Shown one piece after another: positions 1 to 15,168 of a DNA stretch of 15,513 nucleotides (its first letter is position 1; every line of letters starts with the position of its first letter). Both the position numbers and the translations under genes were made by a program. Below the pieces are notes generated by a model. It was not told where the DNA came from. It did not search any database and saw nothing but the letters and a program-made list of their open reading frames with translations. The DNA is from an uncultured bacterium (GTDB taxonomy: Bacteria; Spirochaetota; Leptospiria; Turneriellales; Turneriellaceae): positions 1 through 15,513 of the forward strand of contig CALHRC010000079.1 in NCBI GenBank assembly GCA_938038265.1, in the 5' to 3' direction.

Positions 1-20
1 TCCACATCTGTTATGATAAT

Positions 21-83
21 CCATACCCTGTTCAGGAATTCCTGAACAGGGGGACGGTATCACCCCCGGCAGGGGCTGGTTAG
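21..83. repeat. Repeat element copy A. Perfect 22-bp palindrome CTGTTCAGGAATTCCTGAACAG (28-49), then a G5/C5 hairpin (GGGGG-acggtatca-CCCCC) and a CCCC-GGCA-GGGG hairpin, ending GGTTAG.
   Basis: Read directly. The palindrome is its own reverse complement. A near-identical copy lies at 268-327 in direct orientation. Confidence 0.7.
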
Positions 84-170
84 TAACTCAAAACAAATAT
101 AACGTTAGATAGATTTATATTTTGCTATAGTTATGGCACCCCCAGTAGATGGGGAATTCTCCAACAAGTA

Positions 171-223
171 CCGTCCGACAGGGGGTGTCGGATGGCGCTT
201 TTGTCCGACACTTTGTGTCGGAC
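171..223. repeat. Tandem hairpin pair built from four alternating-orientation copies of GTCCGACA/TGTCGGAC. Hairpin 1: CCGTCCGACA-GGGGG-TGTCGGATGG (171-195). Hairpin 2: GTCCGACAC-TTT-GTGTCGGAC (203-223, 9-bp perfect stem).
   Basis: Inverted repeats read directly. No U-run follows, so this is not a typical intrinsic terminator. It looks like a protein-binding-site array or a structured RNA/DNA element. Confidence 0.6.
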
Positions 224-267
224 GCGTCTTTGGCCAAAAAGCCCGCGGGGGTAAGGGATGGGTTTTT

Positions 268-327
268 CCAATCTGTTCAGGAATTCCTGAACAAAACAGA
301 GTTACATCCCCCCAGCAGGGGGCTTAG
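268..327. repeat. Repeat element copy B. Palindrome CTGTTCAGGAATTCCTGAACA (273-293), then a CCCCCC-AGCA-GGGGG hairpin, ending GCTTAG.
   Basis: Direct repeat of 21-83. Palindrome and C/G hairpin are conserved and the spacer has diverged. It is preceded by AGGGATGGGTTTTTCC (254-269), which resembles the 3'-end tandem repeat core. Confidence 0.7.
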
Positions 328-342
328 AACAGCAAAAAATGC

Positions 343-371
343 TTGAACTGCTAAGAAAAGAATCGTATAAT
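343..371 (+). promoter_or_regulatory. Near-consensus sigma70-type promoter: TTGAAC (343-348), 17-bp spacer, TATAAT (366-371).
   Basis: Hexamers and spacing read directly. The predicted transcription start (~377-379) coincides with an ATG at 377. Confidence 0.55.
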
Positions 372-376
372 GTAAT

Positions 377-544
377 ATGGACATAGGAAAAATTGATCCC
401 TATACGGTGCCGGTAAACCAGCCGCAGACAACCCCACCACAGCCACAACCCACAACAGAAAACGAACCCAAAGCCGATGCCGGCAGCAGTGGCGTTACGC
501 CGCCGGTACCTGAGAATATCCCTAAAATAGATTTTTATGCTTAA
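377..544 (+). CDS. Possible leaderless small ORF, 55 aa, Pro/Thr/Gln-rich (MDIGKIDPYTVPVNQPQTTPPQPQPTTENEPKADAGSSGVTPPVPENIPKIDFYA). Alternatively the CA-rich 5' leader of the downstream gene.
   Basis: I translated this myself. It falls below the 60-aa cutoff of the supplied ORF track. The ATG sits 6 nt after the -10 hexamer. It is in the same frame as the 563 ORF and separated from it by a single TAA (542-544). No similarity recognised. Confidence 0.25.
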   Translation: MDIGKIDPYTVPVNQPQTTPPQPQPTTENEPKADAGSSGVTPPVPENIPKIDFYA

Positions 545-562
545 AAAGCCGATATTAATACC

Positions 563-1381
563 ATGGCTGTAGATCAGGCGACCAAAAAAAAATATAACGA
601 TCAAATTGCTGAACAAAAAAAAGAAATCAGCGAATTAGAAAAAGACATCTCTATTTATCGCAAACAAATGCAAGCCAACAAAAAATTAGAGCCATTTTAC
701 CGTTTAGCCATTATTGCCCGTTACCTCAAGCAGGCCAACCTCTATATTGACATGAGTAATCTTTCTGAATCAATGATGAATATTAAAAATAATTCTTATC
801 TTGACTCCGCTAGAAAACTAATTTATAAAATCATTGTTGAAGCCGAAGACATTTTTACTGCAGAAATTGATGAGCCGCTTGACCATAATCGCGAACAGTT
901 GAACGCCGTAAAGCCATTCAATCCGCGCCAGCGCCTGAACCTCTATAAACATATCAAAAAACTAATCCAACGCCTCATTAACGCTTACGGCCAGAATACG
1001 AAATGGCAGTGGTCCTTCCCCGAGTTGTGGAGCAAATCGTCGGTCTTGCTTAAAAATATGACTGATTTTCGTGAAGTGCAATCTATCCGCGACCCCAGAG
1101 AAATCTATTACTACGACCGGCAGGAAATGCTTGAGCTGTTAAAAGAAGACATGTTTAACGCGTCAAATCACTACCGGGACAAATTTGAGCTTTCGACAAA
1201 GTCACCTAATGATATTGTACATGCAATAAAATTGCTCGAAGGCCTGCGGCGGGTTGCTAGTCTTACTGGCGATGATGAATTAGTCAAACGCTGCAAGGCC
1301 GGCATTGAAGCTTATCGCTCACGCATAGAAACTGACGAAAAAAATGATCCCAAGAAAGCGAAAGCAGCCAAGAAAAAATAA
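563..1381 (+). CDS. Hypothetical protein, 272 aa. N-terminal coiled-coil-like K/E-rich region and a C-terminal histone-H1-like lysine/alanine tail (DPKKAKAAKKK).
   Basis: Long ORF with coherent codon usage and no family recognised. Weak or absent Shine-Dalgarno. A9 (584-592) and A8 (615-622) homopolymers lie within the first 20 codons. Confidence 0.6.
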   Translation: MAVDQATKKKYNDQIAEQKKEISELEKDISIYRKQMQANKKLEPFYRLAIIARYLKQANLYIDMSNLSESMMNIKNNSYLDSARKLIYKIIVEAEDIFTAEIDEPLDHNREQLNAVKPFNPRQRLNLYKHIKKLIQRLINAYGQNTKWQWSFPELWSKSSVLLKNMTDFREVQSIRDPREIYYYDRQEMLELLKEDMFNASNHYRDKFELSTKSPNDIVHAIKLLEGLRRVASLTGDDELVKRCKAGIEAYRSRIETDEKNDPKKAKAAKKK

Positions 1382-1459
1382 AGCAGCCGCTTCAGGCAGG
1401 ATGGAGCTTGCGGTACATAATTCTCGCCATTTCACACGATACTCTATATATTTTCAAAA

Positions 1460-1702
1460 GTGCCGCAGCTTGTTCTCTACCATTTTGACTCCTGTCCGTA
1501 CTGTCTGAAAGTCAGACGGTACCTGGAGCAGAATAACATAACCATAACCATGAAAAACACCATGACCGATCTTGGCGCGCGGGCAGAATTGTTACGCATT
1601 GGCGGTAAAACCCAGGTTCCCTGCCTTGTGATTGACGGCAAAGCCCTCTATGAATCCGATGACATCATTCAATGGTTTCAGGAGAATTACCAGCATGTTT
1701 GA
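1460..1702 (+). CDS. Glutaredoxin (classical dithiol CPYC active site), 80 aa. GTG start inferred.
   Basis: CPYC motif, TQVP and G..D elements of the glutaredoxin/thioredoxin fold. Overlaps the next gene by 8 bp (ATGTTTGA). Confidence 0.7.
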   Translation: MPQLVLYHFDSCPYCLKVRRYLEQNNITITMKNTMTDLGARAELLRIGGKTQVPCLVIDGKALYESDDIIQWFQENYQHV

Positions 1703-1964
1703 AGCGTTATACCGGGCGATAGAAAAAGCCATAACCGACGCGCTGCCCGGTGCCGAGGTACATATCCATGATCCAATGAACGATGGAGCTCACCTGCAGG
1801 CCCTGGTAATTGCAGAACAGTTCCGGGGCATCCCGCTGGTAAAACAGCACAAAATGGTCATGAGCGCGGTCGCCAATCTGATGGAGGCCCGGGTACACTC
1901 TTTGGGTTTAAAAACTTTTACTCCCGAAAAATGGGAAGTTGAAAAAAAAGACTATATAATGTAA
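1695..1964 (+). CDS. BolA/IbaG (YrbA)-family protein, 89 aa.
   Basis: Family-like sequence (HLQALVIAEQFRGIPLVKQHKMV...LKTFTPEKW), compared with E. coli IbaG from memory. Start ATG 1695 is chosen over the track's 1632 because of a GGAG at 1681-1684 and the 8-bp overlap with the grx stop. BolA-Grx partnership is established biology. Confidence 0.75.
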   Translation: MFEALYRAIEKAITDALPGAEVHIHDPMNDGAHLQALVIAEQFRGIPLVKQHKMVMSAVANLMEARVHSLGLKTFTPEKWEVEKKDYIM

Positions 1965-1979
1965 TCACAGGAGTTTAAT

Positions 1980-2294
1980 GTGAGCCTTGAAAACGTAAAA
2001 CAGCAAATTGAGCAGGATGTAAAAAATAATAAAATTATACTCTACATGAAAGGTGACAAAGATATGCCGCGTTGCGGATTTTCCGCTCGGGTCGTCGATA
2101 TATTAAACCATTACGGCGTTGAGTTTGCTACCCGCGATGTACTGAAAAGCGAAGAGTTGCGTCAGGCAATTAAGGAATATTCCGATTGGCCCACCCTGCC
2201 CCAGCTTTATGTTAACGGGGAATTTATCGGCGGCTGCGACATTGTCACGGAACTGCACCAGAACGGGGAACTAAAGGCGCTGTTGGGCGCCTGA
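1980..2294 (+). CDS. grxD: Monothiol glutaredoxin Grx4/GrxD (CGFS type), 104 aa.
   Basis: CGFS active site and N-terminus collinear with E. coli GrxD (ILLYMKG...P.CGFS). GTG start at 1980 with AGGAG 6 nt upstream. Confidence 0.9.
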   Translation: MSLENVKQQIEQDVKNNKIILYMKGDKDMPRCGFSARVVDILNHYGVEFATRDVLKSEELRQAIKEYSDWPTLPQLYVNGEFIGGCDIVTELHQNGELKALLGA

Positions 2295-2296
2295 GT

Positions 2297-3535
2297 ATGT
2301 TTCTTGCCGATAAAATTTCCGATGTTGCTCTAAGCAGAGCTGAAGCCTGGCTTGAGCAGCAGGAACAAACCGTTACTCTGCCCTTGTACCTCTCAACGGA
2401 TATAAGAGATGCTGGTTTCAAGGCCATGCCGATTGATGCTAACTTGTTTCCGGCAGGTTTCAACAACCTGCATTTAGACGATCATCCTTTTGCTGCTCTC
2501 GTCATAAAAAACGCCCTGATGTCGCGCAAAGCGGATATCCGCCGGGTGCTGGTTATCATGGAAGAGCATTCCAGAAATCTTTGGTATCTGGAAAACATCG
2601 CTGTGTTACGTGACCTGATTCTTGCTGGCAAAATCGAGGTAGATGTCACGACCCCCACAGACCTATCCGATGTCACTTACACCGACGGGAAAGCGACCCT
2701 GCTGACTGCCCGAGGGAAAAGTCTTGAAGTAAGACAAATCACATATTGCCAAAACGACGCCTATGATCTGGGAATTTTAAACAACGATTTGATGAACGGC
2801 ATTCCCGACTCTTTGCGGAACCTGCCCTTTCCGATCTGTCCATCCCCCCGCCTTGGCTGGCACTCGCGCTTGAAGTCATCGCACTTTAGCTATTACAATC
2901 GTATAGCTGCAGATTTAGCTAACCTAATGGAAATTGACCCTTGGGAGATCACAGGAGCGGCAAGCAGAGTAGCCGATGTCGATATCAACCTTGATTCCGA
3001 TCGGGAGATTATAGCACAGAGTGCGGCAATACTGCTTGAACAGATTGAACAGAAATACCGGGAGCGCAACATTAACGCCAAACCTTTCGGCTTTCTTAAA
3101 GCTGACTATGGCACTTATGGCATGGGATTGATCCCTTTTGAGTCACCCGATGATATTCGTTTTATGAACCGCAAGACACGTAACCGACTTTTCAAGGGTA
3201 AAGGGTCACGGGAGATCCACGCCTACCTGCTACAGGAAGGAATTCCCAACACATTGAAATACAATGGCTATACTGCTGAAGTCTGCGTTTACCAGAGCGA
3301 CCGTCATCCGATTGGGCAATTTCTGCGCTACAATACGGAAAAATCAGAGCGCGAAAACTTGAACAGTACGGGAATGCACTTTTTGCCGTTCAGCGCCCGG
3401 CAGTCACCAATCTCTGCAAGACACCTGCGCTTCTATTACATTCTTACGAAAACCGCAATGCTGGCAGCTTCACATGAAGCACAGGCTGCGGCCATTACAG
3501 GGTGTGGCCGACATGAACTTTCTCTATCTTATTGA
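2297..3535 (+). CDS. gshA: Glutamate-cysteine ligase, short (~410 aa) proteobacterial family (the 'T. ferrooxidans-type' GshA, as I recall it), 412 aa.
   Basis: Not the 518-aa E. coli-type GshA. The call rests on size, on its position immediately upstream of and overlapping gshB, and on my recollection that this short GshA family typically sits adjacent to gshB. Needs an HMM search to confirm. Confidence 0.55.
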   Translation: MFLADKISDVALSRAEAWLEQQEQTVTLPLYLSTDIRDAGFKAMPIDANLFPAGFNNLHLDDHPFAALVIKNALMSRKADIRRVLVIMEEHSRNLWYLENIAVLRDLILAGKIEVDVTTPTDLSDVTYTDGKATLLTARGKSLEVRQITYCQNDAYDLGILNNDLMNGIPDSLRNLPFPICPSPRLGWHSRLKSSHFSYYNRIAADLANLMEIDPWEITGAASRVADVDINLDSDREIIAQSAAILLEQIEQKYRERNINAKPFGFLKADYGTYGMGLIPFESPDDIRFMNRKTRNRLFKGKGSREIHAYLLQEGIPNTLKYNGYTAEVCVYQSDRHPIGQFLRYNTEKSERENLNSTGMHFLPFSARQSPISARHLRFYYILTKTAMLAASHEAQAAAITGCGRHELSLSY

Positions 3536-4469
3536 TCCCTTAGAGACACTCCACCCCAAAAAAGACACCTCGCTGGCCCTAATGGCCGCCGCAACCGAAA
3601 AAGGTCACTCGGTTTATTGGCTGACCTGGCGGGAACTTTCTCTCGTTTCAGGCAACCTAATGTTTCATGCGCATGAAGTGAAAGTAAAAATCGCCGGCGA
3701 GTATGCACAGGCAGAATCAGGCGCTGCTCGTTTGCTACCAGCGCATGAGGTGGATGTATTTTTTATTAGAACTGATCCACCCTTTGACCTGAATTACCTC
3801 ACCCATATGTGGCTACTCGAATACCTGCCAAGCAAAACCGTTATTTTAAATGAGCCGGCAGGCTTGCGAACCGTAAACGAAAAAATTTTTGCCGCACGCT
3901 ATCGCTCTATAGTGCCCGATACGGTAATCACTGCCGATAAGAACCTATACCGAGAATTTCTCAACCGGCATGGCCACATTGTCGCCAAACCGGCCACTGG
4001 CTTTGGTGGCTCAGCAGTATTTTTAGTACGTCGGGGCGACAGCAACGCCATGGTTATCTTTGAGTCACTTACCCGCAATGGTGAATTTGTCATTTTACAG
4101 GAATATCTGCCTGCTGCTGCCCAAGGCGACAAACGCATTTTGCTGCTGGGCGGCGAAATTCTCGGCGCAGTACTTCGGCTGCATGCAGATGAAGATCACC
4201 GCAATAATTTTGCCGCTGGCGGCAGCGCCCAACCCACCGAAATCACGCCCCGAGACAAAGAAATTATATCCCTCATAAAAGACGATTTGCTGAAACTGGG
4301 GCTTCATTTTGTCGGCATCGACATTATTGGCAGTTCACTGGTAGAAATCAACGTTACCTCACCTACTTGCCTGCGTGAAATAAACACATTGACAGGCAAG
4401 CGTCATGAATTTAACGTTATTGACTATGTAGAAGAGTTATGCAAAAAACGCGCAGAAAAAAATAAATAA
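3513..4469 (+). CDS. gshB: Glutathione synthetase (prokaryotic ATP-grasp GshB), 318 aa.
   Basis: N-terminus MNFLYLIDPLETLHPKKDTSLALM aligns with E. coli GshB MIKLGIVMDPIANINIKKDSSFAML. Start taken at ATG 3513 rather than the track's 3474. Overlaps gshA by 23 bp. Confidence 0.85.
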   Translation: MNFLYLIDPLETLHPKKDTSLALMAAATEKGHSVYWLTWRELSLVSGNLMFHAHEVKVKIAGEYAQAESGAARLLPAHEVDVFFIRTDPPFDLNYLTHMWLLEYLPSKTVILNEPAGLRTVNEKIFAARYRSIVPDTVITADKNLYREFLNRHGHIVAKPATGFGGSAVFLVRRGDSNAMVIFESLTRNGEFVILQEYLPAAAQGDKRILLLGGEILGAVLRLHADEDHRNNFAAGGSAQPTEITPRDKEIISLIKDDLLKLGLHFVGIDIIGSSLVEINVTSPTCLREINTLTGKRHEFNVIDYVEELCKKRAEKNK

Positions 4470-4478
4470 GGAGTCAAG

Positions 4479-5138
4479 ATGGCGACAAAATACAAACTAA
4501 TCAGTTTCAAATTATGTCCTTTTGTGCAACGATCGGTCATTACCTTGAACATGAAACAAGTTCCCTATGAGATTGAGTACATTGACCTGAAAAACAAACC
4601 AGAATGGTTTCTAAAAATTTCGCCGTCGGGAAAAGTCCCTGTTTTGTTGGTAGGCAATGAGGTACTGTTTGAATCAGCAATCATCAATGAATATCTTGAC
4701 GAAGTAAATCCACCCTCACTGCACCCAAAAGACCCCTTGAGAAAAGCACGTAACCGCGCCTGGATTGAATTCTCCTCAGGATTATTTACTCTGTTTTTTC
4801 AACAAGCGCACGCTAAAACAGAAAATGAATTTAACGAGAGAACCAGCGCAATTCTTTCAGGGATGCAAAAACTTGAGGAGCAAATCGTGCTGCCTTTTTT
4901 TAACGGAACTGAATTTAACTTGATCGACGCGGCAATTGCCCCAATGCTGGGTCGGTTTCAATATATAAAAAAATATATCCCATTTGATTATTTTGAGGGC
5001 ACCCCCAAGATGAAACAATATGCAGAGCGCTTAGAGCAACTACCGGAAATACGCAGCAGCCTTTTACCCGAAGTTCCTGCAGAGTTTATCGATTACATGA
5101 AGCATACCGGGGGCTATATGGCCCAGTGGTTTCAATAA
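4479..5138 (+). CDS. Glutathione S-transferase family protein (thioredoxin-like N-domain with CPFVQR, Grx2/omega-like), 219 aa.
   Basis: GST N-terminal fold signatures (KLISFKLCPF..R, VP.L, ES..I.EYL). AGGAG Shine-Dalgarno 8 nt upstream. Confidence 0.8.
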   Translation: MATKYKLISFKLCPFVQRSVITLNMKQVPYEIEYIDLKNKPEWFLKISPSGKVPVLLVGNEVLFESAIINEYLDEVNPPSLHPKDPLRKARNRAWIEFSSGLFTLFFQQAHAKTENEFNERTSAILSGMQKLEEQIVLPFFNGTEFNLIDAAIAPMLGRFQYIKKYIPFDYFEGTPKMKQYAERLEQLPEIRSSLLPEVPAEFIDYMKHTGGYMAQWFQ

Positions 5139-5139
5139 T

Positions 5140-6057
5140 ATGCTGGCACTCGAAATAGCTAACCTCAAAAAAACTTACACGGGCGGTCAAACGGCACTTA
5201 AAGGCATAAGCCTAACGGTAAAAAAGGGGGATTTCTTCGCCCTGCTTGGCCCTAATGGAGCAGGAAAATCCACCCTGATCTCGATTTTAACTTCGCTGAC
5301 TCTCAAAGATTCAGGTACTGTAAAAATATGCGACATTGACATCGACAAAAATTTTGCCGAAGCCCGCCGCCGACTCGGCGTGGTACCGCAGGAATTTAAT
5401 TTTAATATCTTTGAAAAGGTCGCACAGATTGTACAAAATCAAGCAGGCTACTACGGAATTCCCCGCCGTCTCGCCCGTGAAAGAACAGAAATGGTACTGC
5501 GCCAGCTTGAGCTGTGGGAGAAACGCAATGTGCAGGGGCGTATGCTATCGGGGGGGATGAAACGGCGCCTAATGATTGCCCGCGCTTTGGTACACCAGCC
5601 GGAAGTGCTTATTCTCGATGAACCGACAGCCGGAGTGGATATTGAACTGCGACGTCAGATGTGGAATTTTTTGCAACAACTCAACTGCACAGGTACCACT
5701 ATCATCTTAACAACTCATTATCTCGAAGAAGCTGAACAACTCTGCCGTAATATTGCCATCATTAACCAAGGAGAAATTATTGCCAATACCGACAAGAAAT
5801 CATTGCTTAGCATGCTTGATACCAACACTCTGGTGCTTGAACTAGCAAAACCACTCAAGAAAGCGCCGGTCATTCAAAATGCACAATCGGTACTCAGCGA
5901 CAGCCAGACACTGGAACTTACCTTCAGCTCCCGAATACCGGTTAGCAAAATTTTGTACCATCTTGAAACCCAGAAAATTTCTTTCACTGGAATAAGAAAC
6001 AAGACAAATCGTCTGGAAGAATTATTTGTCCGTCTTACTGCAAAGAGAGCATCATGA
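5140..6057 (+). CDS. ABC transporter ATP-binding protein (ABC-2 exporter ATPase, YadG-like), 305 aa.
   Basis: Walker A GPNGAGKST, signature LSGGMKRRL, Walker B ILDEPTAGVD. The ATG lies 1 nt after the GST stop. Confidence 0.9.
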   Translation: MLALEIANLKKTYTGGQTALKGISLTVKKGDFFALLGPNGAGKSTLISILTSLTLKDSGTVKICDIDIDKNFAEARRRLGVVPQEFNFNIFEKVAQIVQNQAGYYGIPRRLARERTEMVLRQLELWEKRNVQGRMLSGGMKRRLMIARALVHQPEVLILDEPTAGVDIELRRQMWNFLQQLNCTGTTIILTTHYLEEAEQLCRNIAIINQGEIIANTDKKSLLSMLDTNTLVLELAKPLKKAPVIQNAQSVLSDSQTLELTFSSRIPVSKILYHLETQKISFTGIRNKTNRLEELFVRLTAKRAS

Positions 6058-6839
6058 ACGACCGAACAAACCGCAAAGCTGAATGGATTGCCTTCTATAC
6101 CATTATCCGAAAGGAAGTCCAGCGCATTATTCGCATTTGGAGCCAGACCCTGCTGCCATCGGTGATCACCACAACGCTGTATTTTCTGATTTTTGGCAAT
6201 TTGATGGGCAGCAGAGTAGGCAATCTAGGGGGATTTCCCTATAGTGATTTCATCGCTCCGGGGCTTGTCATGATGTCAATTATTACCAATTCTTATGGGA
6301 ACGTCTCATCCTCTTTCTTTGGAGCAAAATTTTCCCGCAGTATTGAAGAGTTGTTGGTCTCACCGGTCAGTGAGCATACGATTATCTTGGGTTATATGAC
6401 AGGCGGTATCTTTCGCGGACTCATGGTAGGAATTCTTGTTTCAAGCGTAGCACTGTTCTTTACCAATCCGGTTGTCACTCATCCGGTTCTGGCAGTCATA
6501 CTAACTCTGCTGGTCTCCTCCCTGTTCTCTCTCGCCGGACTACTCAATGCCCTTAAAGCAAGAAATTTTGACGACATTAGTATTATTCCCACATTCATAC
6601 TTACGCCACTGACTTACCTGGGGGGTGTTTTCTACTCAGTTCACATGCTGCCCGACTTCTGGCGTTTTGTCTCTTACGCAAATCCCATACTATATATGGT
6701 CTCTGTATTCCGGTTTGCTTTTCTGGGAGCAAGTGACATCCCCCCCTGGCCAGCTCTGTTACTGCTCATCACCCTTACCCTGGCTCTCTATGGGGTCTGC
6801 TGGTTCTTGGTACGCTGGGGTAAAGGTCTGCGTAATTGA
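6054..6839 (+). CDS. ABC-2 type transporter permease (YadH-like), 261 aa, multi-pass membrane protein.
   Basis: Six hydrophobic segments. ATGA start/stop overlap with the ATPase gene. Confidence 0.8.
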   Translation: MNDRTNRKAEWIAFYTIIRKEVQRIIRIWSQTLLPSVITTTLYFLIFGNLMGSRVGNLGGFPYSDFIAPGLVMMSIITNSYGNVSSSFFGAKFSRSIEELLVSPVSEHTIILGYMTGGIFRGLMVGILVSSVALFFTNPVVTHPVLAVILTLLVSSLFSLAGLLNALKARNFDDISIIPTFILTPLTYLGGVFYSVHMLPDFWRFVSYANPILYMVSVFRFAFLGASDIPPWPALLLLITLTLALYGVCWFLVRWGKGLRN

Positions 6840-6870
6840 TAGCAGAGCGTAAAAAAAGTATGCAAATTCC

Positions 6871-6905
6871 TTGACATACCCGCAGGTTATAATATCATTG
6901 CGGGA
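6871..6905 (+). promoter_or_regulatory. Promoter-like region: perfect TTGACA (6871-6876) and perfect TATAAT (6888-6893) only 11 bp apart, embedded in an inverted repeat CCCGCA(6879-6884)...TGCGGG(6899-6904).
   Basis: Read directly. The spacing is non-canonical for sigma70. The palindrome straddles the -10, which suggests an operator. It lies 24-58 nt upstream of the SPFH gene, which has a GAGGT Shine-Dalgarno at 6917-6921. Confidence 0.35.
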
Positions 6906-6928
6906 TAATCCATTTATGAGGTAACCCA

Positions 6929-7954
6929 ATGGCATTGATTGATCGCATTAAGTATGACGCGGGGCCCGACGAGATAGTCTGGAAATATCCTAAAGATGAT
7001 ATTGTTTGGGGCGGTCAACTCATTGTCAATGAATCCCAGGAATGTATTTTTGTCAAAGGTGGGCAGACTGCCGATATATTCGGCCCGGGCACACACACTC
7101 TTAAAAGTGGGAATATCCCACTGCTTGAAAAACTAATTAACTTACCTTTTGGCGGCGATACTCCCTTTACTGCTGAAATATGGTACGTCAACAAAACTCC
7201 ATTTATCGGGTTGCAGTGGGGCACTAAAACTCCTATCCAGGTGGAAGATCCTAAATTTGGTATTTTGACAAACCTGCGTGGGCACGGTGTCTATGGCTTT
7301 CGCGTCGTTGACACTCGCCATTTTATTAAAGAAATTGTCGGCACTAAAAAAGCTACCAATACAGAGCAAATTGATCTGCTATTCAAAAATATTATTGCCA
7401 GTGATATTGAAGAACTTTTGTCGCAGATCATTCATGACCAGAATATCGATATTATCCGTATCAATACCCAGCGCACCAATATTGAAGAAGCCTTTAAACC
7501 AAAATTAGCAGAAAAATTTCAGAAGTATGGCTTGGAGCTTGAGCAATTTGAAATTGTCTCCCTCAATATTCCCCAGGATGATCCCGGCTATAAGACTTTA
7601 GTGGAAGCGCGCGCCAAACGCGCTGCAGCAGTTGAACAGGCAATGGGCGATAAAGCGCAGATAGATATACTCGGAGCCGCTTACCAGCAGAAAAGAATGC
7701 TCGATATTGGTGAGGCGGCAGCGAAAAATGAAGGACAAGGCGGCGGTATGATGGGTGCCGGTATGGGTATGGGAATGGGTATGAATATGGGCCAGATGAT
7801 GGGCGGCATGATGAACCAGGCAGGACAGCAAGCAGCAGCTGCAACCGACGATCCGGCAGCCAAACTCGCGAAACTAAAAACCATGCTCGACCAGGGTCTT
7901 ATTACCCAGCAGGAATTTGACGCAAAAAAGCAGGAAATCCTTTCAAAGATCTGA
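6929..7954 (+). CDS. SPFH/band-7 (stomatin-prohibitin-like, COG4260-type) protein with Gly/Met-rich low-complexity linker and C-terminal SHOCT-like motif, 341 aa.
   Basis: N-terminal region resembles the COG4260/YdjI-like SPFH family. The C-terminal KLAKLKTMLDQGLITQQEFDAKKQEILSKI matches the SHOCT short C-terminal domain pattern. Confidence 0.7.
   Translation: MALIDRIKYDAGPDEIVWKYPKDDIVWGGQLIVNESQECIFVKGGQTADIFGPGTHTLKSGNIPLLEKLINLPFGGDTPFTAEIWYVNKTPFIGLQWGTKTPIQVEDPKFGILTNLRGHGVYGFRVVDTRHFIKEIVGTKKATNTEQIDLLFKNIIASDIEELLSQIIHDQNIDIIRINTQRTNIEEAFKPKLAEKFQKYGLELEQFEIVSLNIPQDDPGYKTLVEARAKRAAAVEQAMGDKAQIDILGAAYQQKRMLDIGEAAAKNEGQGGGMMGAGMGMGMGMNMGQMMGGMMNQAGQQAAAATDDPAAKLAKLKTMLDQGLITQQEFDAKKQEILSKI
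7738..7818 (+). repeat. In-frame hexanucleotide (ATG-GGN) tandem repeat encoding GGGMMGAGMGMGMGMNMGQMMGGMM.
   Basis: DNA ggtatgggtatgggaatgggtatgaatatgggc read directly. The 6-bp unit preserves the frame if copy number changes. Confidence 0.8.
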
Positions 7955-7956
7955 CC

Positions 7957-8925
7957 TTGTCGCGCTTGAGTTCACTGGCAGACTCCATCAACTCAGCAAT
8001 TGACAGACAATTGGCTGTCATTCTTGGTGAAGAGTTGCCAATATTAAAAGAGATAAAAGACTTTGTCATCCAAAGCGGCGGCAAGCGGGTGCGCCCACTG
8101 CTACTTATCTTACTAACCCGCTCTTTCGGATGTCATGACGAAAACGCCGAAGCTTTAGCGGCCATAACGGAAATTATTCACGCATCAAGCCTCTTGCATG
8201 ACGACGTCATTGACGGTGCGGATGAACGCCGCGGCCAACCATCAGGGCGTGCTCTTTTTGGTAACCAAGCGGTAATTCTTGGGGGCGATTATCTATTAGC
8301 TTGTGGTATTGAAAGGTTAAATCGTTTTCAAGACCAGCGACAGATGGATCTATTTACCAGAGTAATAAAACATCTCTCAATGGCGGAGCTGCTACAAATG
8401 CACTATGCCCGCCGAGCGGAAATTACTCTTGAAATTTACCAGCGTATCATATACGGCAAAACAGCGGTTCTTTTTGAAGCTGCCGCAGTGAGTGCCGGCC
8501 TGTATGCCAAACAAAGTCCTGAAATACTGCAAGCACTAGAAACAATCGGCCGTGACCTCGGAATGCTGTTCCAGATCCGCGACGATATGCTGGATTATTT
8601 CAAAGCCAGTCTGCTGAAAAAAGCTGCACTCACCGATTACGACAATGGCCTATATACTTACCCGGTGCTGGAGCTGCGGGAACGAGCCGATGAAAAAACG
8701 CAAAAAGAACTAACACGCTTTATGGAATTACCGAGAGAATTGCGTAGCGACAAAAAAAACCACCAGACTTTTCTTGCCTTTTTGCAACAATATGATTGTG
8801 AAAAACATTGTATTGACCGAATCAACCAGTTAAAGAGGGGGATTTATTTAGCCCTGCAGGCGCTACCCCCTGACGATCATATTGACCTTATTCGGGAACA
8901 AATAGAAAGACTGACGGATTTCTAA
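7957..8925 (+). CDS. ispB: Polyprenyl (octaprenyl) diphosphate synthase, 322 aa.
   Basis: Both DDxxD motifs (LLHDDVIDGAD; FQIRDDMLDY). Collinear with E. coli IspB. TTG start 2 nt after the upstream stop. Confidence 0.85.
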   Translation: MSRLSSLADSINSAIDRQLAVILGEELPILKEIKDFVIQSGGKRVRPLLLILLTRSFGCHDENAEALAAITEIIHASSLLHDDVIDGADERRGQPSGRALFGNQAVILGGDYLLACGIERLNRFQDQRQMDLFTRVIKHLSMAELLQMHYARRAEITLEIYQRIIYGKTAVLFEAAAVSAGLYAKQSPEILQALETIGRDLGMLFQIRDDMLDYFKASLLKKAALTDYDNGLYTYPVLELRERADEKTQKELTRFMELPRELRSDKKNHQTFLAFLQQYDCEKHCIDRINQLKRGIYLALQALPPDDHIDLIREQIERLTDF

Positions 8926-10235
8926 TTAGGCTTTGCCGGCGGCGTCACCCGCGCAAAGATAAAATCCACATGTTTCAGAAAAGAAGTAATATCAAATACT
9001 TCATCCCATGCGCTATCGGGAATTGACTTAAGCTCGTCACGTGAACTAAGCCGCTGCCGCAAATCGGGGCCATTGAGATCGGCCCAGACTGCCATGGCCT
9101 CTTGCTGTATGATCTGATAAGCCTCTTCGCGACTGATCTTCACCACCGAGGTCACAGTTAACAAAGCGCGCGACGAAAACAATAAGCCTTTAGTCTGCCC
9201 AAGCACGCGCTTTATATTTTCTTCATGCACCTGCAGGTTAGTTATCACAAATTCCATTTTTTGGAGCATATATTCAAATAGACTAGTAGCATCGGGTAAA
9301 ATCACTCTTTCAGCTCCCGAATGAGAGATATCCCGCTCATGCCAGAGGCCAATGTTTTGCCAGGCAGTCTGCGAATATCCGGCAAGCACCCGCGCTAAAC
9401 CGCAAATTCGTTCACACAAAATCGGATTACGCTTGTGCGGCATTGCCGATGAACCTTTCTGCCCTTTCTGAAATGGCTCTTCAATTTCGCGGCTTTCTGT
9501 TTTTTGCATAAGCCTGATTTCCTGCGCCAGACGCGAGAGGGCAGCAGCACCAAGAGCAAGAGCATTGAGATAATGTGCGTGTCTGTCCCGTGGTACGACT
9601 TGGGTACTGACCGGCTCCGGCTTAAGACCTAACTTACCAAGCACATATTCTTCAAGCTCAGGGGGCAGCTGGGAATAAGTGCCGACAGCCCCTGAAATTT
9701 TACCAAATTTTATGTCTTCAAGTGCAGCAGCGAAACGATCACGGCCTCGCTGCAGTTCAGTATAATAACCTAATAGTTTAAGACCTAAAGTTGTAGGTTC
9801 CGCATGAACGCCATGAGTGCGACCAACAACCGGTAGTTTTTTGTATTTAACCGCCTGACGATATACACTGGCCAACAGAGAATCCCAGGCGGAAAGAATC
9901 CATCCCCCCGCCTCTGCTAACTGGTACGAGAGCGCAGTGTCAACCACATCCGAAGAAGTTAGGCCATAATGTACATGCCGGGAAGCCGGGCCAATATTTT
10001 CAGCCATGTTGGTAAGAAAAGCGATAACGTCATGGTGGGTTTCGTTTTCAATTTCTAAAATTCTTTCAACAGAAAAATTAGCTTTTAAGCGGATGTTATT
10101 CATTTCATCATCACTAATTTGCCCTAATGAATGCCAATATTCGCAGGCAAAAATTTCAATATCTTTCCAGATTTCAAATTTTCTCTGCAGCGACCACAAA
10201 TGCCGCATTTCTTTTGAGGAATAGCGATCTATCAT
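8922..10235 (-). CDS. purB: Adenylosuccinate lyase, 437 aa.
   Basis: N-terminus MIDRYSSKEMRHLWSLQRKFEIWKDIEIFACEYWHSLGQIS, as I recall typical of the short (~430 aa, B. subtilis-type) PurB. Fumarate-lyase family length. Confidence 0.9.
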   Translation of the reverse strand: MIDRYSSKEMRHLWSLQRKFEIWKDIEIFACEYWHSLGQISDDEMNNIRLKANFSVERILEIENETHHDVIAFLTNMAENIGPASRHVHYGLTSSDVVDTALSYQLAEAGGWILSAWDSLLASVYRQAVKYKKLPVVGRTHGVHAEPTTLGLKLLGYYTELQRGRDRFAAALEDIKFGKISGAVGTYSQLPPELEEYVLGKLGLKPEPVSTQVVPRDRHAHYLNALALGAAALSRLAQEIRLMQKTESREIEEPFQKGQKGSSAMPHKRNPILCERICGLARVLAGYSQTAWQNIGLWHERDISHSGAERVILPDATSLFEYMLQKMEFVITNLQVHEENIKRVLGQTKGLLFSSRALLTVTSVVKISREEAYQIIQQEAMAVWADLNGPDLRQRLSSRDELKSIPDSAWDEVFDITSFLKHVDFIFARVTPPAKPN

Positions 10236-11643: not shown

Positions 11644-12456
11644 TCAAAATTTTTTCGAATTAACTGCTCTATTGATCAATGCAACCGCCTCATCGGCATC
11701 TATCCAACGACCGCTAAAAGGATCACGAATTTCACCCGGTTTAAAACGAATTTTGTAATTCATTTTGCTATGTTGGGGGATGTAATAACCTAAATACAAA
11801 TAGGGAATTCCCTGCTCGGTAGCATATTGCAAACCTTGCAATATTATCTCTGTACCCAAACTGCGATGGTGCAAGCTAGTGTCATAGACCGAATAGAGAG
11901 CATGTAAGGCATCCTTCCCACGGTCAAAAGTAGCAAAACCAACCAAACGCTTATCTAAGCGCAAGGTCAATTCTAATGTTCCGGCAACTGGCGAAAACAT
12001 TCGATGTTTCATCCCTTCAAGTGCAGGCTCTCTATAAAAGAAATTTAAAACAGGAAGCTCATCAATTAAGTTTTTTAAAAGTTGTTCATGTCGTTCTAGC
12101 CGGTATTTGAGGTAAAGACGCGCCTTTGAAAGAGTAAGTTGGGGAGTTTGCCAACATATTTCAAGATCTCGATTTTTTTTCATAACGCGCTTCATATTTT
12201 GTGACGGCTTAAAATCAGCTGTCCGCACACGGTAGCTCATACATTGGCGACAATGGGGACATTCTGGACGAGTAAAACGGTTGTCTGAGGAATTGGTGCC
12301 TAACCGACTATAACCTTGTTCTATTAAATACTCCAAAGTCAAATCATCAGGATCTTTAATATAAAGCTTTCTTTTTTGAGCTTGTCTGTCCTCAAAATAA
12401 CTACACTGTTCTGAAACTATAGTCGATATTCTATCTAACCAATCCGAAATATTCAT
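11644..12456 (-). CDS. bpt: Arginyl/leucyl-tRNA-protein transferase family (bacterial Bpt/Ate1-like, N-end rule), 270 aa.
   Basis: Cys cluster CPHCRQCMSYR typical of the ATE N-domain, YLGYYI in the C-domain, ~240-270 aa length. Start abuts the alaS stop. Confidence 0.65.
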   Translation of the reverse strand: MNISDWLDRISTIVSEQCSYFEDRQAQKRKLYIKDPDDLTLEYLIEQGYSRLGTNSSDNRFTRPECPHCRQCMSYRVRTADFKPSQNMKRVMKKNRDLEICWQTPQLTLSKARLYLKYRLERHEQLLKNLIDELPVLNFFYREPALEGMKHRMFSPVAGTLELTLRLDKRLVGFATFDRGKDALHALYSVYDTSLHHRSLGTEIILQGLQYATEQGIPYLYLGYYIPQHSKMNYKIRFKPGEIRDPFSGRWIDADEAVALINRAVNSKKF

Positions 12457-15168
12457 TTAAGATATAGCCTCGAATAGTTTTATAAAATTATTAAGGGATT
12501 CTTGCGAATCTTTCACATTTTTACATACTGCCTGTACCAGCTCTTTTTTACCTCCACCGTTAGCTCCACTTCCCGGAAGAATTTTTTTCAGAGTTTCAGA
12601 CAGATCAATTTTATAGTCGTCGGCATATTTACGCGAACAGGCGGCAACAAAACTCCACATTCCTGTAGAATAGCCACCGAGCAGAAACAGTACCGCAGGA
12701 TCCATCTCGCGCAGTCTATCTGCCAGAGACTTCAAGGCAGCGATATCCAAATCATTTTCATAGTACGCTGCAATGGTAAGCGCCCCTAAGTTTCTTTTCG
12801 TTTTCAGAACCCGATCGGGCAGCTCAGGCGCAAACCCGCGTTTAGTTTCCGCTTTTTTCTCAGATCTTTTCATATCTGCTTCGATATTTTTCAACCTGTC
12901 ACGTAAGGCTGACAGACTGCGAAAATTCCCAGGTGTCGGCATAACAGTATTATTAAAAGTGTAAATCTCCTGCATAAGGCGCTCTTTGAAGGGAGAGACA
13001 CTCGCTGTTTCTTCCAGAACTTTAATCATGCTGGCGATCTCCTGCCGGCGCTCCTCGAACATTTTGCTCGCAGCGGCTCCGGCATAGGCCTCAATCCGTC
13101 TATTACCCGCACCTGGACTACTTTCCTTCGCTAAAAAAAACATCCCAATATCGTTAGTATTGCCGACATGAGTTCCGCCGCAAAATTCACTAGAAAAACT
13201 ACCTATTTCAACAACGCGCACAATATCCCCATATTTTTCACCAAAGGTCATAAGGGCACCTCGTTTTTCAGCCTCTTCTTTGGGAAGCACTGCGGTCTGA
13301 ACTGACACGCTGGCGGCTATGGCATTATTGACATCCTCCTCTATTGCGGTTATCTGCTCTAAGTTTAACGCGGCAGGGTGAGTAAAATCAAATCTAAGGT
13401 AATCTTCATGCACCAGAGAACCACTCTGGCGAACATGCTCTCCTAAAACGCGCCGCAGGGCGCCATTGAGTAAATGCGTCGCGCTGTGGTGTCTGGCAAG
13501 CGCATTACGTCTCTCTCGATCCACTGTCAGAGTTATTGTATCTCCAACTGACAGAGAACCCTCAAGATGAGCGCAAATATGCACGATAGCATCGCCGTTC
13601 TTTTGCGTATCAATAACAGCCGCGCGACCGCCATTCCACTCAATCAATCCAGTATCCCCTAATTGCCCACCGCTTTCAGGATAAAAGCAGGTTCGCCGTG
13701 TTATGATATAGAAAACGCTGTTCGGGGTCAACTCTAATTCTTTAATTTTCTGGTACTGCTGATCGCCTATAATCAGGGCCGTAACTTCTGCAGATTCCTG
13801 CAAGCGGTCATAGCCAGTAAATTCTGTCTGAATACCCACTTGGGGAAATTGGATCGCAGCGCCCTTCCAAGCTGCTCTACCACGCGCTCGCTGGTTTTCC
13901 ATTTCTTTATGAAAACCCTGCATATCCAGTTTTAGATTGCGAGCCTCCGCTAACTCTTTTGTCATTTCCGGGGGAAAGCCATAAGTGTCATAAAGAATGA
14001 AAATTTCTTTACCGGGGATGGTGCGCTCGCCATAAGCGCCATCCTCTGCTTTGTGAAGTATTTCTTCAAGTCTGTCAGCTCCAGATTCCAAAGTTTTGAG
14101 AAAACGATTTTCTTCTTGCTTAATGTACTCTTTCGTTAAGTATTGAGCAGGCATCAATTCAGGATAAAATTTGCCGTAAATTGCGGTAACTACATCCACC
14201 ATTTCAAATAATTTGCTTTCTTTCTGCCCTAAGCGACGACCAAAAAGCAAAGCTCGTCGCAGAATACGACGCAGTACATAGCCTCGTGATTCATTGGCAG
14301 GATAGATGCCATCCGCCATAGCAAACGACAAAGCGCGCACATGGTCAGTTAAAACGCGAATGGGCAGGATATTCTCTCCTTCATAAGAGGCGTTATAGTG
14401 CCGCGCTATTGCATCCCTAAGTGTTTTTAGCTCATCAGTATCATAGACGGAATCAACACCCTGCACTAGTGTAGCAAGCCGTTCAAGCCCCGCACCGGTA
14501 TCAATGCCGGTTTGCTGCAGAGGCAAATATTCTTTGCCATTGTAGTTATATTGATTGAAAACTAAATTCCAGAATTCCATAAAACGATCCCCGCTGCCAC
14601 CCGGTGCTGTTTCTTCAGGGCCAAATTCAACTCCGCGATCTAAATAAAGCTCGCTGCAAGGGCCGCAAGCGCCGGTCTCGCCGGCTGGGCCCCAAAAATT
14701 ATCGGCCCGCCCCAACCTCACAACTCTCTTAGCCGGTATGCCAATGTGCTTTGTCCAGAGGTCAAAAGCTTCGTCGTCTTTTTCAAATATTGATATCCAA
14801 ATATTTTCTTTTGGGAAAGGCAGAAAGGATGTCGTGTATTCCCAGGCAAACTCAATCGCTTCTTTCTTGAAATAATCGCCAAAACTAAAATTGCCCAACA
14901 TTTCGAACATGGAAAGATGGCGTTTGGTACGACCCACCGATTCCAAATCTGTGGTTCGGATACACTTCTGTACAGTGGCAATACGATTTCTCGGCGGCTT
15001 AGCTGCTCCAGAAAAATAATCTTTGAAAGGCACCATCCCCGCCGTAGTAAATAGCAGAGTGGGATCATTGGCCGGCAGTAAGCTAGCACCCGACATAACC
15101 AGATGACCCTTTTCTTTGAAATATTCCAGAAATGTAGTTCTGATATCGTTGATTGTCTGCACTTTCAT
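12457..15168 (-). CDS. alaS: Alanine-tRNA ligase, 903 aa.
   Basis: N-terminus F...F..KGH.....SL.P..DPTLLFT.AGM and the FEMLGNFSFGDYFK motif, collinear with AlaS throughout. C-terminal DHHA1-like region is present. Confidence 0.95.
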   Translation of the reverse strand: MKVQTINDIRTTFLEYFKEKGHLVMSGASLLPANDPTLLFTTAGMVPFKDYFSGAAKPPRNRIATVQKCIRTTDLESVGRTKRHLSMFEMLGNFSFGDYFKKEAIEFAWEYTTSFLPFPKENIWISIFEKDDEAFDLWTKHIGIPAKRVVRLGRADNFWGPAGETGACGPCSELYLDRGVEFGPEETAPGGSGDRFMEFWNLVFNQYNYNGKEYLPLQQTGIDTGAGLERLATLVQGVDSVYDTDELKTLRDAIARHYNASYEGENILPIRVLTDHVRALSFAMADGIYPANESRGYVLRRILRRALLFGRRLGQKESKLFEMVDVVTAIYGKFYPELMPAQYLTKEYIKQEENRFLKTLESGADRLEEILHKAEDGAYGERTIPGKEIFILYDTYGFPPEMTKELAEARNLKLDMQGFHKEMENQRARGRAAWKGAAIQFPQVGIQTEFTGYDRLQESAEVTALIIGDQQYQKIKELELTPNSVFYIITRRTCFYPESGGQLGDTGLIEWNGGRAAVIDTQKNGDAIVHICAHLEGSLSVGDTITLTVDRERRNALARHHSATHLLNGALRRVLGEHVRQSGSLVHEDYLRFDFTHPAALNLEQITAIEEDVNNAIAASVSVQTAVLPKEEAEKRGALMTFGEKYGDIVRVVEIGSFSSEFCGGTHVGNTNDIGMFFLAKESSPGAGNRRIEAYAGAAASKMFEERRQEIASMIKVLEETASVSPFKERLMQEIYTFNNTVMPTPGNFRSLSALRDRLKNIEADMKRSEKKAETKRGFAPELPDRVLKTKRNLGALTIAAYYENDLDIAALKSLADRLREMDPAVLFLLGGYSTGMWSFVAACSRKYADDYKIDLSETLKKILPGSGANGGGKKELVQAVCKNVKDSQESLNNFIKLFEAIS

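Follow-up and report, generated by a model that had tools for sequence, protein, structure and literature searches.

The locus described here raises the question of where a compact run of glutathione genes begins and ends, and of whether such a run is unusual in the lineage that carries it. The window, by which we mean the whole analysed stretch of 15,513 nucleotides (nt) of contig CALHRC010000079.1 from an uncultured bacterium, had been described in an initial annotation as carrying a six-gene thiol-redox unit, made of a glutaredoxin gene (grx), a BolA-family gene, grxD, gshA, gshB and a glutathione S-transferase gene (gst). We found the six open reading frames (ORFs) at exactly the positions that had been given for them, on the + strand, and their labels were borne out by curated hidden Markov models (HMMs). 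However, gst is not the last gene of the unit, as had been proposed, since orthologues of E. coli yadG and yadH follow it tightly. In our analysis, positions 1460-6839 of the window probably constitute one eight-gene glutathione-system operon with the order grx, bolA/ibaG-like gene, grxD, gshA, gshB, omega-like gst, yadG and yadH.

The run opens with grx (1460-1702; 80 amino acids (aa), GTG start, CPYC motif), which overlaps by 8 bp the gene of a BolA-family protein of the IbaG/YrbA subtype (1695-1964; 89 aa), with an AGGAGA located 9 nt 5ʹ of the bolA ATG. A 15-nt spacer with an internal AGGAG leads to grxD (1980-2294; 104 aa, GTG start, CGFS motif), and a gap of 2 nt separates grxD from gshA (2297-3535; 412 aa), the end of which overlaps gshB (3513-4469; 318 aa) by 23 bp. 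The omega-class-like gst (4479-5138; 219 aa) starts after a 9-nt gap that contains AAGGAG. These five junctions had been listed in the initial annotation and were reproduced by reading the sequence, as was a Shine-Dalgarno sequence before gst. The yadG orthologue, encoding an ABC ATPase (5140-6057; 305 aa), begins 1 nt after the gst stop codon and overlaps by 4 nt (ATGA) the yadH orthologue, encoding an ABC-2 permease (6054-6839; 261 aa), and the junctions along the whole + strand run, read off the sequence, are -8, 15, 2, -23, 9, 1 and -4 nt. The run has what is expected of an operon: one strand, short or overlapping junctions and, in the comparison of the window with loci L003 and L005, its two closest relatives, no conserved internal terminator. 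Judging from gene order, junctions and conservation, the eight genes would be co-transcribed.

The 23-bp overlap of gshA and gshB is identical in L003 and L005. It is kept because the TGA stop codon of gshA sits within the ATT-GAT codons of the conserved LIDP motif of gshB. A programmed frameshift at this place, leading to a fused enzyme, was considered and rejected, as the TGA falls in the LIDP codons and the Turneriella loci are devoid of the overlap. We also rejected the idea that gshAB is separated from the Grx/BolA genes by an attenuator. The candidate for it, a terminator-like hairpin at 2275-2292 (predicted -14.1 kcal/mol), was the only + strand hit inside the cluster, but it has no U-tract, lies within the grxD coding sequence and is absent from L003 and L005.

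The first three products of the run are two glutaredoxins and a BolA-family protein. Grx matched PF00462 with 51.3 bits (cut-off 22.9) as well as PF13417 (GST_N_3) with 62 bits, and its translation contains the CPYC, TQVP (cis-Pro) and ESDD motifs expected of a dithiol glutaredoxin. Its fold is GST-N-like, the nearest solved structures being Grx 7c10 and the N-terminal domain of Grx2, and it reached no NCBIfam equivalog cut-off. The BolA-family protein matched PF01722 with 49.7 bits (cut-off 25.7), and its score against the NCBIfam BolA equivalog (32 bits, cut-off 137) was consistent with a non-BolA subtype. The nearest solved homologues were YrbA 5nfk and 1ny8, with conservation of the C-terminal His (RVHSL versus ILHAL of 5nfk), and by this homology the protein is assigned to the IbaG/YrbA subtype. 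GrxD is a monothiol glutaredoxin of the Grx4 family (TIGR00365, 148.6 bits versus a cut-off of 117.1) with a CGFS active site (PRCGFSARV), and it is 79% identical to its orthologues in L003 and L005.

The identity of the 412-aa protein was one of the points on which the initial annotation had made its reading depend, and the proposed glutamate-cysteine ligase passed the HMM check. The protein matched PF08886 with 342.4 bits (cut-off 25) over residues 14-394, and the equivalog TIGR02049, the 'ferrooxidans' type, with 308.6 bits versus a cut-off of 293.9. In an alignment of 15 GshA sequences (40-48% identity), 61 columns were invariant, including the GTYGMG block, and all of them are kept in the protein from the window. 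The family profile matched a single solved structure, PDB 3k1t, which is named GshA (E = 2.7e-117). The predicted function is accordingly that of a glutamate-cysteine ligase of the PF08886/TIGR02049 type. GshB scored 313.1 bits with NF003573 (cut-off 272), 101 bits with PF02951 and 182.5 bits with PF02955, and was narrowly under the cut-off of a second equivalog, TIGR01380 (296.2 versus 299.05).

The role of the GST turned out to be more doubtful than the 'conjugation' function that had been attributed to it. The protein contains GST_N_2 (69.6 bits) and GST_C_2 (30.5 bits) domains, and its top PDB matches were pyrimidodiazepine synthase, TDR1, SspA homologues, GSTO1, dehydroascorbate reductases (DHARs) and lambda GSTs (E = 1e-26 to 1e-15). 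With omega GSTs such as human GSTO1 and the insect pyrimidodiazepine synthase, with DHARs and with lambda GSTs it shares the GST fold and a Cys in the CP[FY] motif; its own CPF aligns with the CPY of 10ha, at the start of helix 1. It differs from them in being bacterial and shorter, and in the lack of the N-terminal extension of GSTO1, and it scores about equally against SspA-like proteins, which are generally devoid of this Cys. On this comparison, the protein is classed as an omega-class-like, Cys-type enzyme. Because of this class and of the active-site Cys, thiol transfer or deglutathionylation would be a more likely function than conjugation. Among the related loci, gst was found only in L003/L004 and L005.

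The two genes downstream of gst encode a YadGH-type transporter, as indicated by the permease cut-off, the full-length similarity of both subunits and the adjacency of the pair. YadG matched PF00005 and is 58% identical to E. coli K-12 YadG over the full length; YadH scored 385.6 bits with NF011648 (cut-off 225) and is likewise 58% identical to E. coli YadH over the full length. The E. coli genes have the same two-gene layout with the same 4-nt overlap. A yadH gene occupies the same position in L003, L005, L006, L010, L025 and L032.

The run was compared with gene neighbourhoods in other genomes. A scan of GTDB genomes with the 15-sequence GshA alignment yielded 80 loci, to which three Leptospiria loci fetched earlier were added; a genome scan with a single GshA protein as the query found no relatives. 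Neighbours were identified by blastp of the window proteins against six-frame ORFs, and were counted if they were on the same strand and not more than 6 kb from gshA. In eight loci of Leptospiria/Spirochaetota, gshB was found in all eight, bolA together with grxD also in all eight, a YadGH-like pair in six, grx in five and gst in two. For the 35 loci of Omnitrophota/PVC the numbers were 34 for gshB, 33 for grx, 24 for bolA with grxD, 19 for the YadGH-like pair (15 if only the 20 fully flanked loci are considered) and none for gst. The seven loci of Margulisbacteria/UBP8 had gshB in five cases, bolA with grxD in three, grx in two, and neither the YadGH-like pair nor gst. Finally, among the 27 loci of Proteobacteria/Bdellovibrionota, gshB was present in 20, and grx, bolA with grxD, the YadGH-like pair and gst in none. 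The co-occurrence of bolA and grxD with gshA in 8/8 Leptospiria and 24/35 Omnitrophota/PVC loci, versus 0/27 proteobacterial/Bdellovibrionota loci, argues against chance, and on these counts the clustering is taken to be real and selected, and to be the rule in Leptospiria, Omnitrophota and some Margulisbacteria.

The order of the genes told the same groups apart. L003, which comes from a Leptospiraceae metagenome-assembled genome (MAG), together with L004 and with L005, carries a small ORF, a gene for a 272-aa protein, grx, bolA, grxD, gshA, gshB, gst, yadG and yadH, as in the window. The order is identical and the junctions are similarly tight, yet the identity of GshA between the window and L003/L005 is only 46-48%. 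In the Turneriella loci, the order is (grx-)bolA-grxD-gshA-gshB-yadG-yadH, followed by a gene for glyoxalase II (hydroxyacylglutathione hydrolase; 11896-12678 in L010 and 11941-12726 in L006), which also depends on glutathione. The Omnitrophota/PVC cluster has the same seven families as the window, on one strand and often abutting, but in a permuted order, usually yadGH-like-gshA-gshB-grx-bolA-grxD, with the transporter first, the Grx/BolA genes last and no gst. Thiobacillus, Ferrovum, Thiohalobacter and related proteobacteria have the same non-canonical PF08886 GshA followed directly by gshB (20 of 27 loci), and grx, bolA, grxD, gst and yadGH are all missing from the surrounding 6 kb. We also noticed that many Omnitrophota loci have, on the strand opposite to the cluster, an additional BolA-like ORF of divergent sequence (21-33% identity), placed between gshA and the yadH-like gene (L041, 7605-7856 (-); L043, 4931-5179 (-); also L046, L047, L042, L031, L026 and L044).

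The nearest relatives of GshA and GrxD were in the 'Leptospiraceae bacterium' MAG GCA_033577975.1 and in a Logan contig, followed by Turneriella, Omnitrophota and Margulisbacteria. The best 120 matches of the GrxD search came without exception from metagenomes or MAGs, and Leptospira proper was not among them. The same metagenomic DNA as in the window is present in Logan ERR9287890 and ENA ERZ6864144. By these relationships, the host is an uncultured relative of Leptospiraceae and Turneriella, and the gammaproteobacterial frame of reference that had been used for the cluster was the wrong one.

A related locus is known from the literature. In L. interrogans, consecutive locus tags encode a BolA-like protein (LIMLP_08975), Grx4 (LIMLP_08980, LIC11809), Grx (LIMLP_08985, LIC11810), glutathione synthetase (LIMLP_08990), gamma-glutamylcysteine ligase (LIMLP_08995) and GGT (LIMLP_09000) (PMC10294975, PMC8638967); the locus LIMLP_08975-09000 is cited also from PMC11442865, and in the LIC numbering it begins with LIC11808. 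This locus, from a related lineage, has the five core families of the window as consecutive genes. It differs in the order bolA-grx4-grx-gshB-gshA, in having ggt where the window has the omega-like gst, and in that no adjacent yadGH is reported; its strands, spacing and GshA family type are known from the literature only. In L. interrogans biofilm, gshA, gshB and both glutaredoxin genes were up together, 2.5-2.6-fold (PMC11442865), and in a perRA/B double mutant the genes of BolA and Grx4 were both down (PMC8638967). This joint regulation of the homologous genes lends indirect support to a single transcription unit. PMC10294975, through which we cite both studies, describes measurements of glutamate-cysteine ligase, glutathione synthetase and Grx activities in lysates of L. 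interrogans (Sasoni et al. 2019) and the complementation of yeast grx mutants by each of the two Grx genes (Sasoni et al. 2022).

With this background, a six-gene supra-operon ending at gst, in which synthesis, Grx/BolA and conjugation would be coupled in a consolidation unusual for gammaproteobacteria, appears unlikely. Its genes and junctions are precisely as described, and in E. coli the six gene families are indeed scattered in the genome, with grxD and bolA separate from ibaG. The 'unusual consolidation' stands against E. coli only, however, and not within the three groups in which clustering is the rule. The arrangement is found commonly in three phyla, L. interrogans has it as well (PMC10294975), the lineage is Leptospiria-like, the extension into yadG and yadH recurs in L003, L005 and Turneriella, and the GST is omega-like with an active-site Cys. 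The synteny check that had been suggested along with the six-gene reading, when run, gave the shared order of L003 and L005 and the variants of Turneriella and Omnitrophota. The core of the cluster is also of a familiar kind. Adjacent Grx and BolA genes are reported to be frequent among prokaryotes (PMC3721309), and heterodimers of Grx4 with IbaG and of GrxD with BolA, with a glutathione-ligated [2Fe-2S] cluster, are established (PMC10051749). Like the E. coli Grx-BolA pairs, the window has a CGFS Grx gene adjoining a BolA-family gene, the latter of the IbaG/YrbA type with the C-terminal His; unlike in E. coli, where ibaG and murA are transcribed together (PMC10051749), the pair has a dithiol grx on one side and the glutathione synthesis genes on the other.

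The start of the eight-gene operon is marked by a promoter-like sequence, TCGCCA-N17-TATATT (1424-1452, +), which scored 9/12 in a promoter scan of positions 1-9000 of the window, with sites scored out of 12. The -10 hexamer, TATATT, ends 7 nt 5ʹ of the grx GTG, which is the sole possible start codon 5ʹ of the CPYC motif. In L003 and L005, TATATT is located 6 nt 5ʹ of the grx starts, and TTGCCA-N17-TATATT precedes the first cluster gene in the Turneriella/Spirochaetota loci L010, L006 and L032, with a TGGCCA variant in L025. This recurrence indicates that 1424-1452 is probably a genuine sigma-70-type promoter. Since TATATT ends about 7 nt before the GTG and no Shine-Dalgarno sequence was seen between the two, a leaderless start of grx is suggested for the clade of the window; in other words, a TATATT box 6-7 nt before grx predicts a leaderless operon start. 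The grx gene (1460-1702 in the window, 871-1183 in L001) is absent from the Logan gene calls for identical DNA. The omission probably results from GTG being the start codon and from the absence of a Shine-Dalgarno sequence, a leaderless start may be its cause, and automatic annotation may under-report grx in related MAGs. A second candidate for a leaderless start lies upstream, where the promoter-like TTGAAC-17-TATAAT (343-371, +; 10/12) ends 5 nt before the ATG of a 55-aa ORF. Leaderless mRNAs may be common in the host organism.

Several observations weigh against the eight-gene operon, and they concern both of its ends. At the 5ʹ end, no terminator was found in the 78-nt gap between the gene of the 272-aa protein and grx, so that read-through from upstream is possible. 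A larger, ten-gene unit would then start from TTGAAC-17-TATAAT and include the Pro/Gln-rich 55-aa ORF (377-544, +), which ends 18 nt before the next gene, and the gene of the 272-aa protein (563-1381, +), both of which are found at the same place in L003 and L005. We find such a unit rather unlikely, as no other gap of the series is as large as that of 78 nt, and as grx or bolA has a conserved promoter-like motif of its own immediately before it. Moreover, the same pair is found elsewhere, beside unrelated genes, in Turneriella (L088) and in Leptospiraceae/Spirochaetia MAGs (L089 and L090). For this reason the 272-aa protein was rejected as an operon member, and on its distribution the pair is regarded as a separate module.

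At the 3ʹ end, yadH is not followed by any evident intrinsic terminator. The first sizeable gap, of 89 nt (6840-6928), comes 3ʹ of yadH, and synteny with L003 and L005 stops after this gene, where those loci continue with purK-purE. Tight packing is, however, a general trait of these genomes: the yadH-to-purK junctions are +21 nt in L003 and -4 nt in L005, where yadH overlaps a gene unrelated to it. Spacing alone therefore proves neither shared function nor the 3ʹ boundary. The conservation of the transporter genes has limits as well. In the loci of Leptospiria, yadGH is missing from L022 and L033, and it is missing from those of Margulisbacteria. The Omnitrophota permease, which scores slightly under the NF011648 cut-off, shares only 35% identity with E. 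coli YadH and about 33-38% with YadH of the window. In E. coli itself, yadGH lies between can and yadI, away from glutathione genes, whereas the pair of the window adjoins gst.

These observations could be explained by yadGH, and perhaps gst, being passengers in a compact genome, so that only grx-bolA-grxD-gshA-gshB would form the functional module. The published phenotypes of E. coli YadGH, weak macrolide tolerance and activation by MarA, point in the same direction, as glutathione is not mentioned with them (PMC13462070). We consider this explanation a serious one, with a chance somewhat below even. Against it, a YadH-family pair stands beside gshAB in 6/8 Leptospiria and 15/20 fully flanked Omnitrophota loci but in 0/27 proteobacterial loci, and in at least three positions, namely 3ʹ of gshB, 5ʹ of gshA and, in L012, 3ʹ of grxD. 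In addition, the accessory gene at the cluster edge differs by lineage and is always related to glutathione, being gst in the window, gloB in Turneriella and ggt in L. interrogans (PMC10294975). We retain yadG and yadH in the eight-gene operon.

The recurrent linkage of a YadGH-type ABC-2 exporter with glutathione synthesis genes is the sole fresh lead from this analysis, the remainder being a known kind of cluster. From its occurrence in two phyla and at least three positions we propose, tentatively, that exporters of this type are tied to glutathione metabolism and might export glutathione, oxidised glutathione (GSSG) or glutathione S-conjugates. This is the least secure step of our argument. 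If it holds, it would explain the presence of YadGH beside gshAB in Leptospiria (on the 3ʹ side) and in Omnitrophota (on the 5ʹ side, or 3ʹ of grxD in L012). Nitroaromatic compounds include classical substrates of GSTs. According to PMC13462070, the E. coli yadG promoter is induced by nitroaromatic compounds, and the pump itself has no known physiological substrate. A glutathione-related function would fit this induction and would give E. coli YadGH a testable native role, and the YadGH-gshAB linkage offers a concrete and cheap hypothesis for its native substrate. A search of the literature for a connection between YadH and glutathione yielded, as judged by titles and abstracts, nothing but unrelated co-mentions.

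Taken together, these data are compatible with the following scheme, in which all enzymatic roles and, above all, the substrate of the transporter are deduced from homology. Transcription would start from the 1424-1452 promoter, located some 7 nt 5ʹ of the grx start codon, and give a leaderless mRNA, on which the downstream genes would be translated either from their own Shine-Dalgarno sites (bolA, grxD and gst) or by coupling through the overlaps and the 1-2 nt gaps. GshA and GshB would make glutathione, which all remaining products would need. As the [2Fe-2S] cluster of CGFS glutaredoxins has glutathione as a ligand (PMC10051749), the CGFS GrxD and the IbaG-like BolA protein could hold such a glutathione-ligated cluster, with a role in Fe-S trafficking or sensing. 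Glutathione-dependent disulfide reduction and deglutathionylation would fall to the CPYC Grx and the Cys-type GST, and the YadGH ABC-2 exporter might move glutathione or a glutathione adduct over the inner membrane. An uncultured Leptospiria-like bacterium would in this way carry a complete and self-contained glutathione system, in an operon that is itself ordinary and typical of its lineage. Leptospiria, Omnitrophota and Margulisbacteria have in common that synthesis is packaged with two glutaredoxins, with BolA/IbaG and, in many cases, with an ABC-2 exporter, which is not so in the proteobacteria with the same GshA family.

Outside the operon, positions 1-376 of the window contain no convincing ORF, and the window gave no hits in Rfam and tRNA scans. 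A strong terminator-like hairpin at 171-195 (+), with a 10-bp stem that includes 6 GC pairs and is followed by CGCTTTTGTC, may end an upstream gene or a small RNA. The 272-aa protein, which has no Pfam domain, is better conserved than any other protein nearby, with 79-80% identity in L003 and L005. The family that it represents comprises just 55 members, and the named ones are nearly all from Leptospiraceae, Turneriella and Spirochaetia MAGs; among the three other relatives, the homologue is preceded by a small ORF in two (L088 and L089) and by lgt in L090. The AlphaFold2 model of the protein was confident (predicted local distance difference test, pLDDT, 90.6) and all-helical, and its comparison with the PDB gave no meaningful fold match.

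On the other side of the operon, the strongest promoter-like site of the scan, TTGACA-16-TATCAT (6871-6898, +; 11/12), precedes a gene at 6929-7954 (+) that encodes an SPFH (Band_7_1) protein with a C-terminal SHOCT domain and a Met/Gly-rich low-complexity stretch, GGGMMGAGMGMGMGMNMGQMMGGMMNQ, between the two domains. Within 6871-6905 (+), the site overlaps an inverted repeat, CCCGCA-N14-TGCGGG, which is a possible operator for the SPFH/SHOCT gene. Further downstream, a polyprenyl synthetase gene (+, ending at 8925) and an adenylosuccinate lyase gene (-, ending at 8922) converge, with their stop codons overlapping by 4 nt (8922-8925). At 11644-15168 (-), alaS is followed without a spacer by a gene for an arginine-tRNA-protein transferase (ATE_N/ATE_C), an N-end-rule enzyme, and it may merit attention that a tRNA synthetase gene is paired here with one for an aminoacyl-tRNA-protein transferase.

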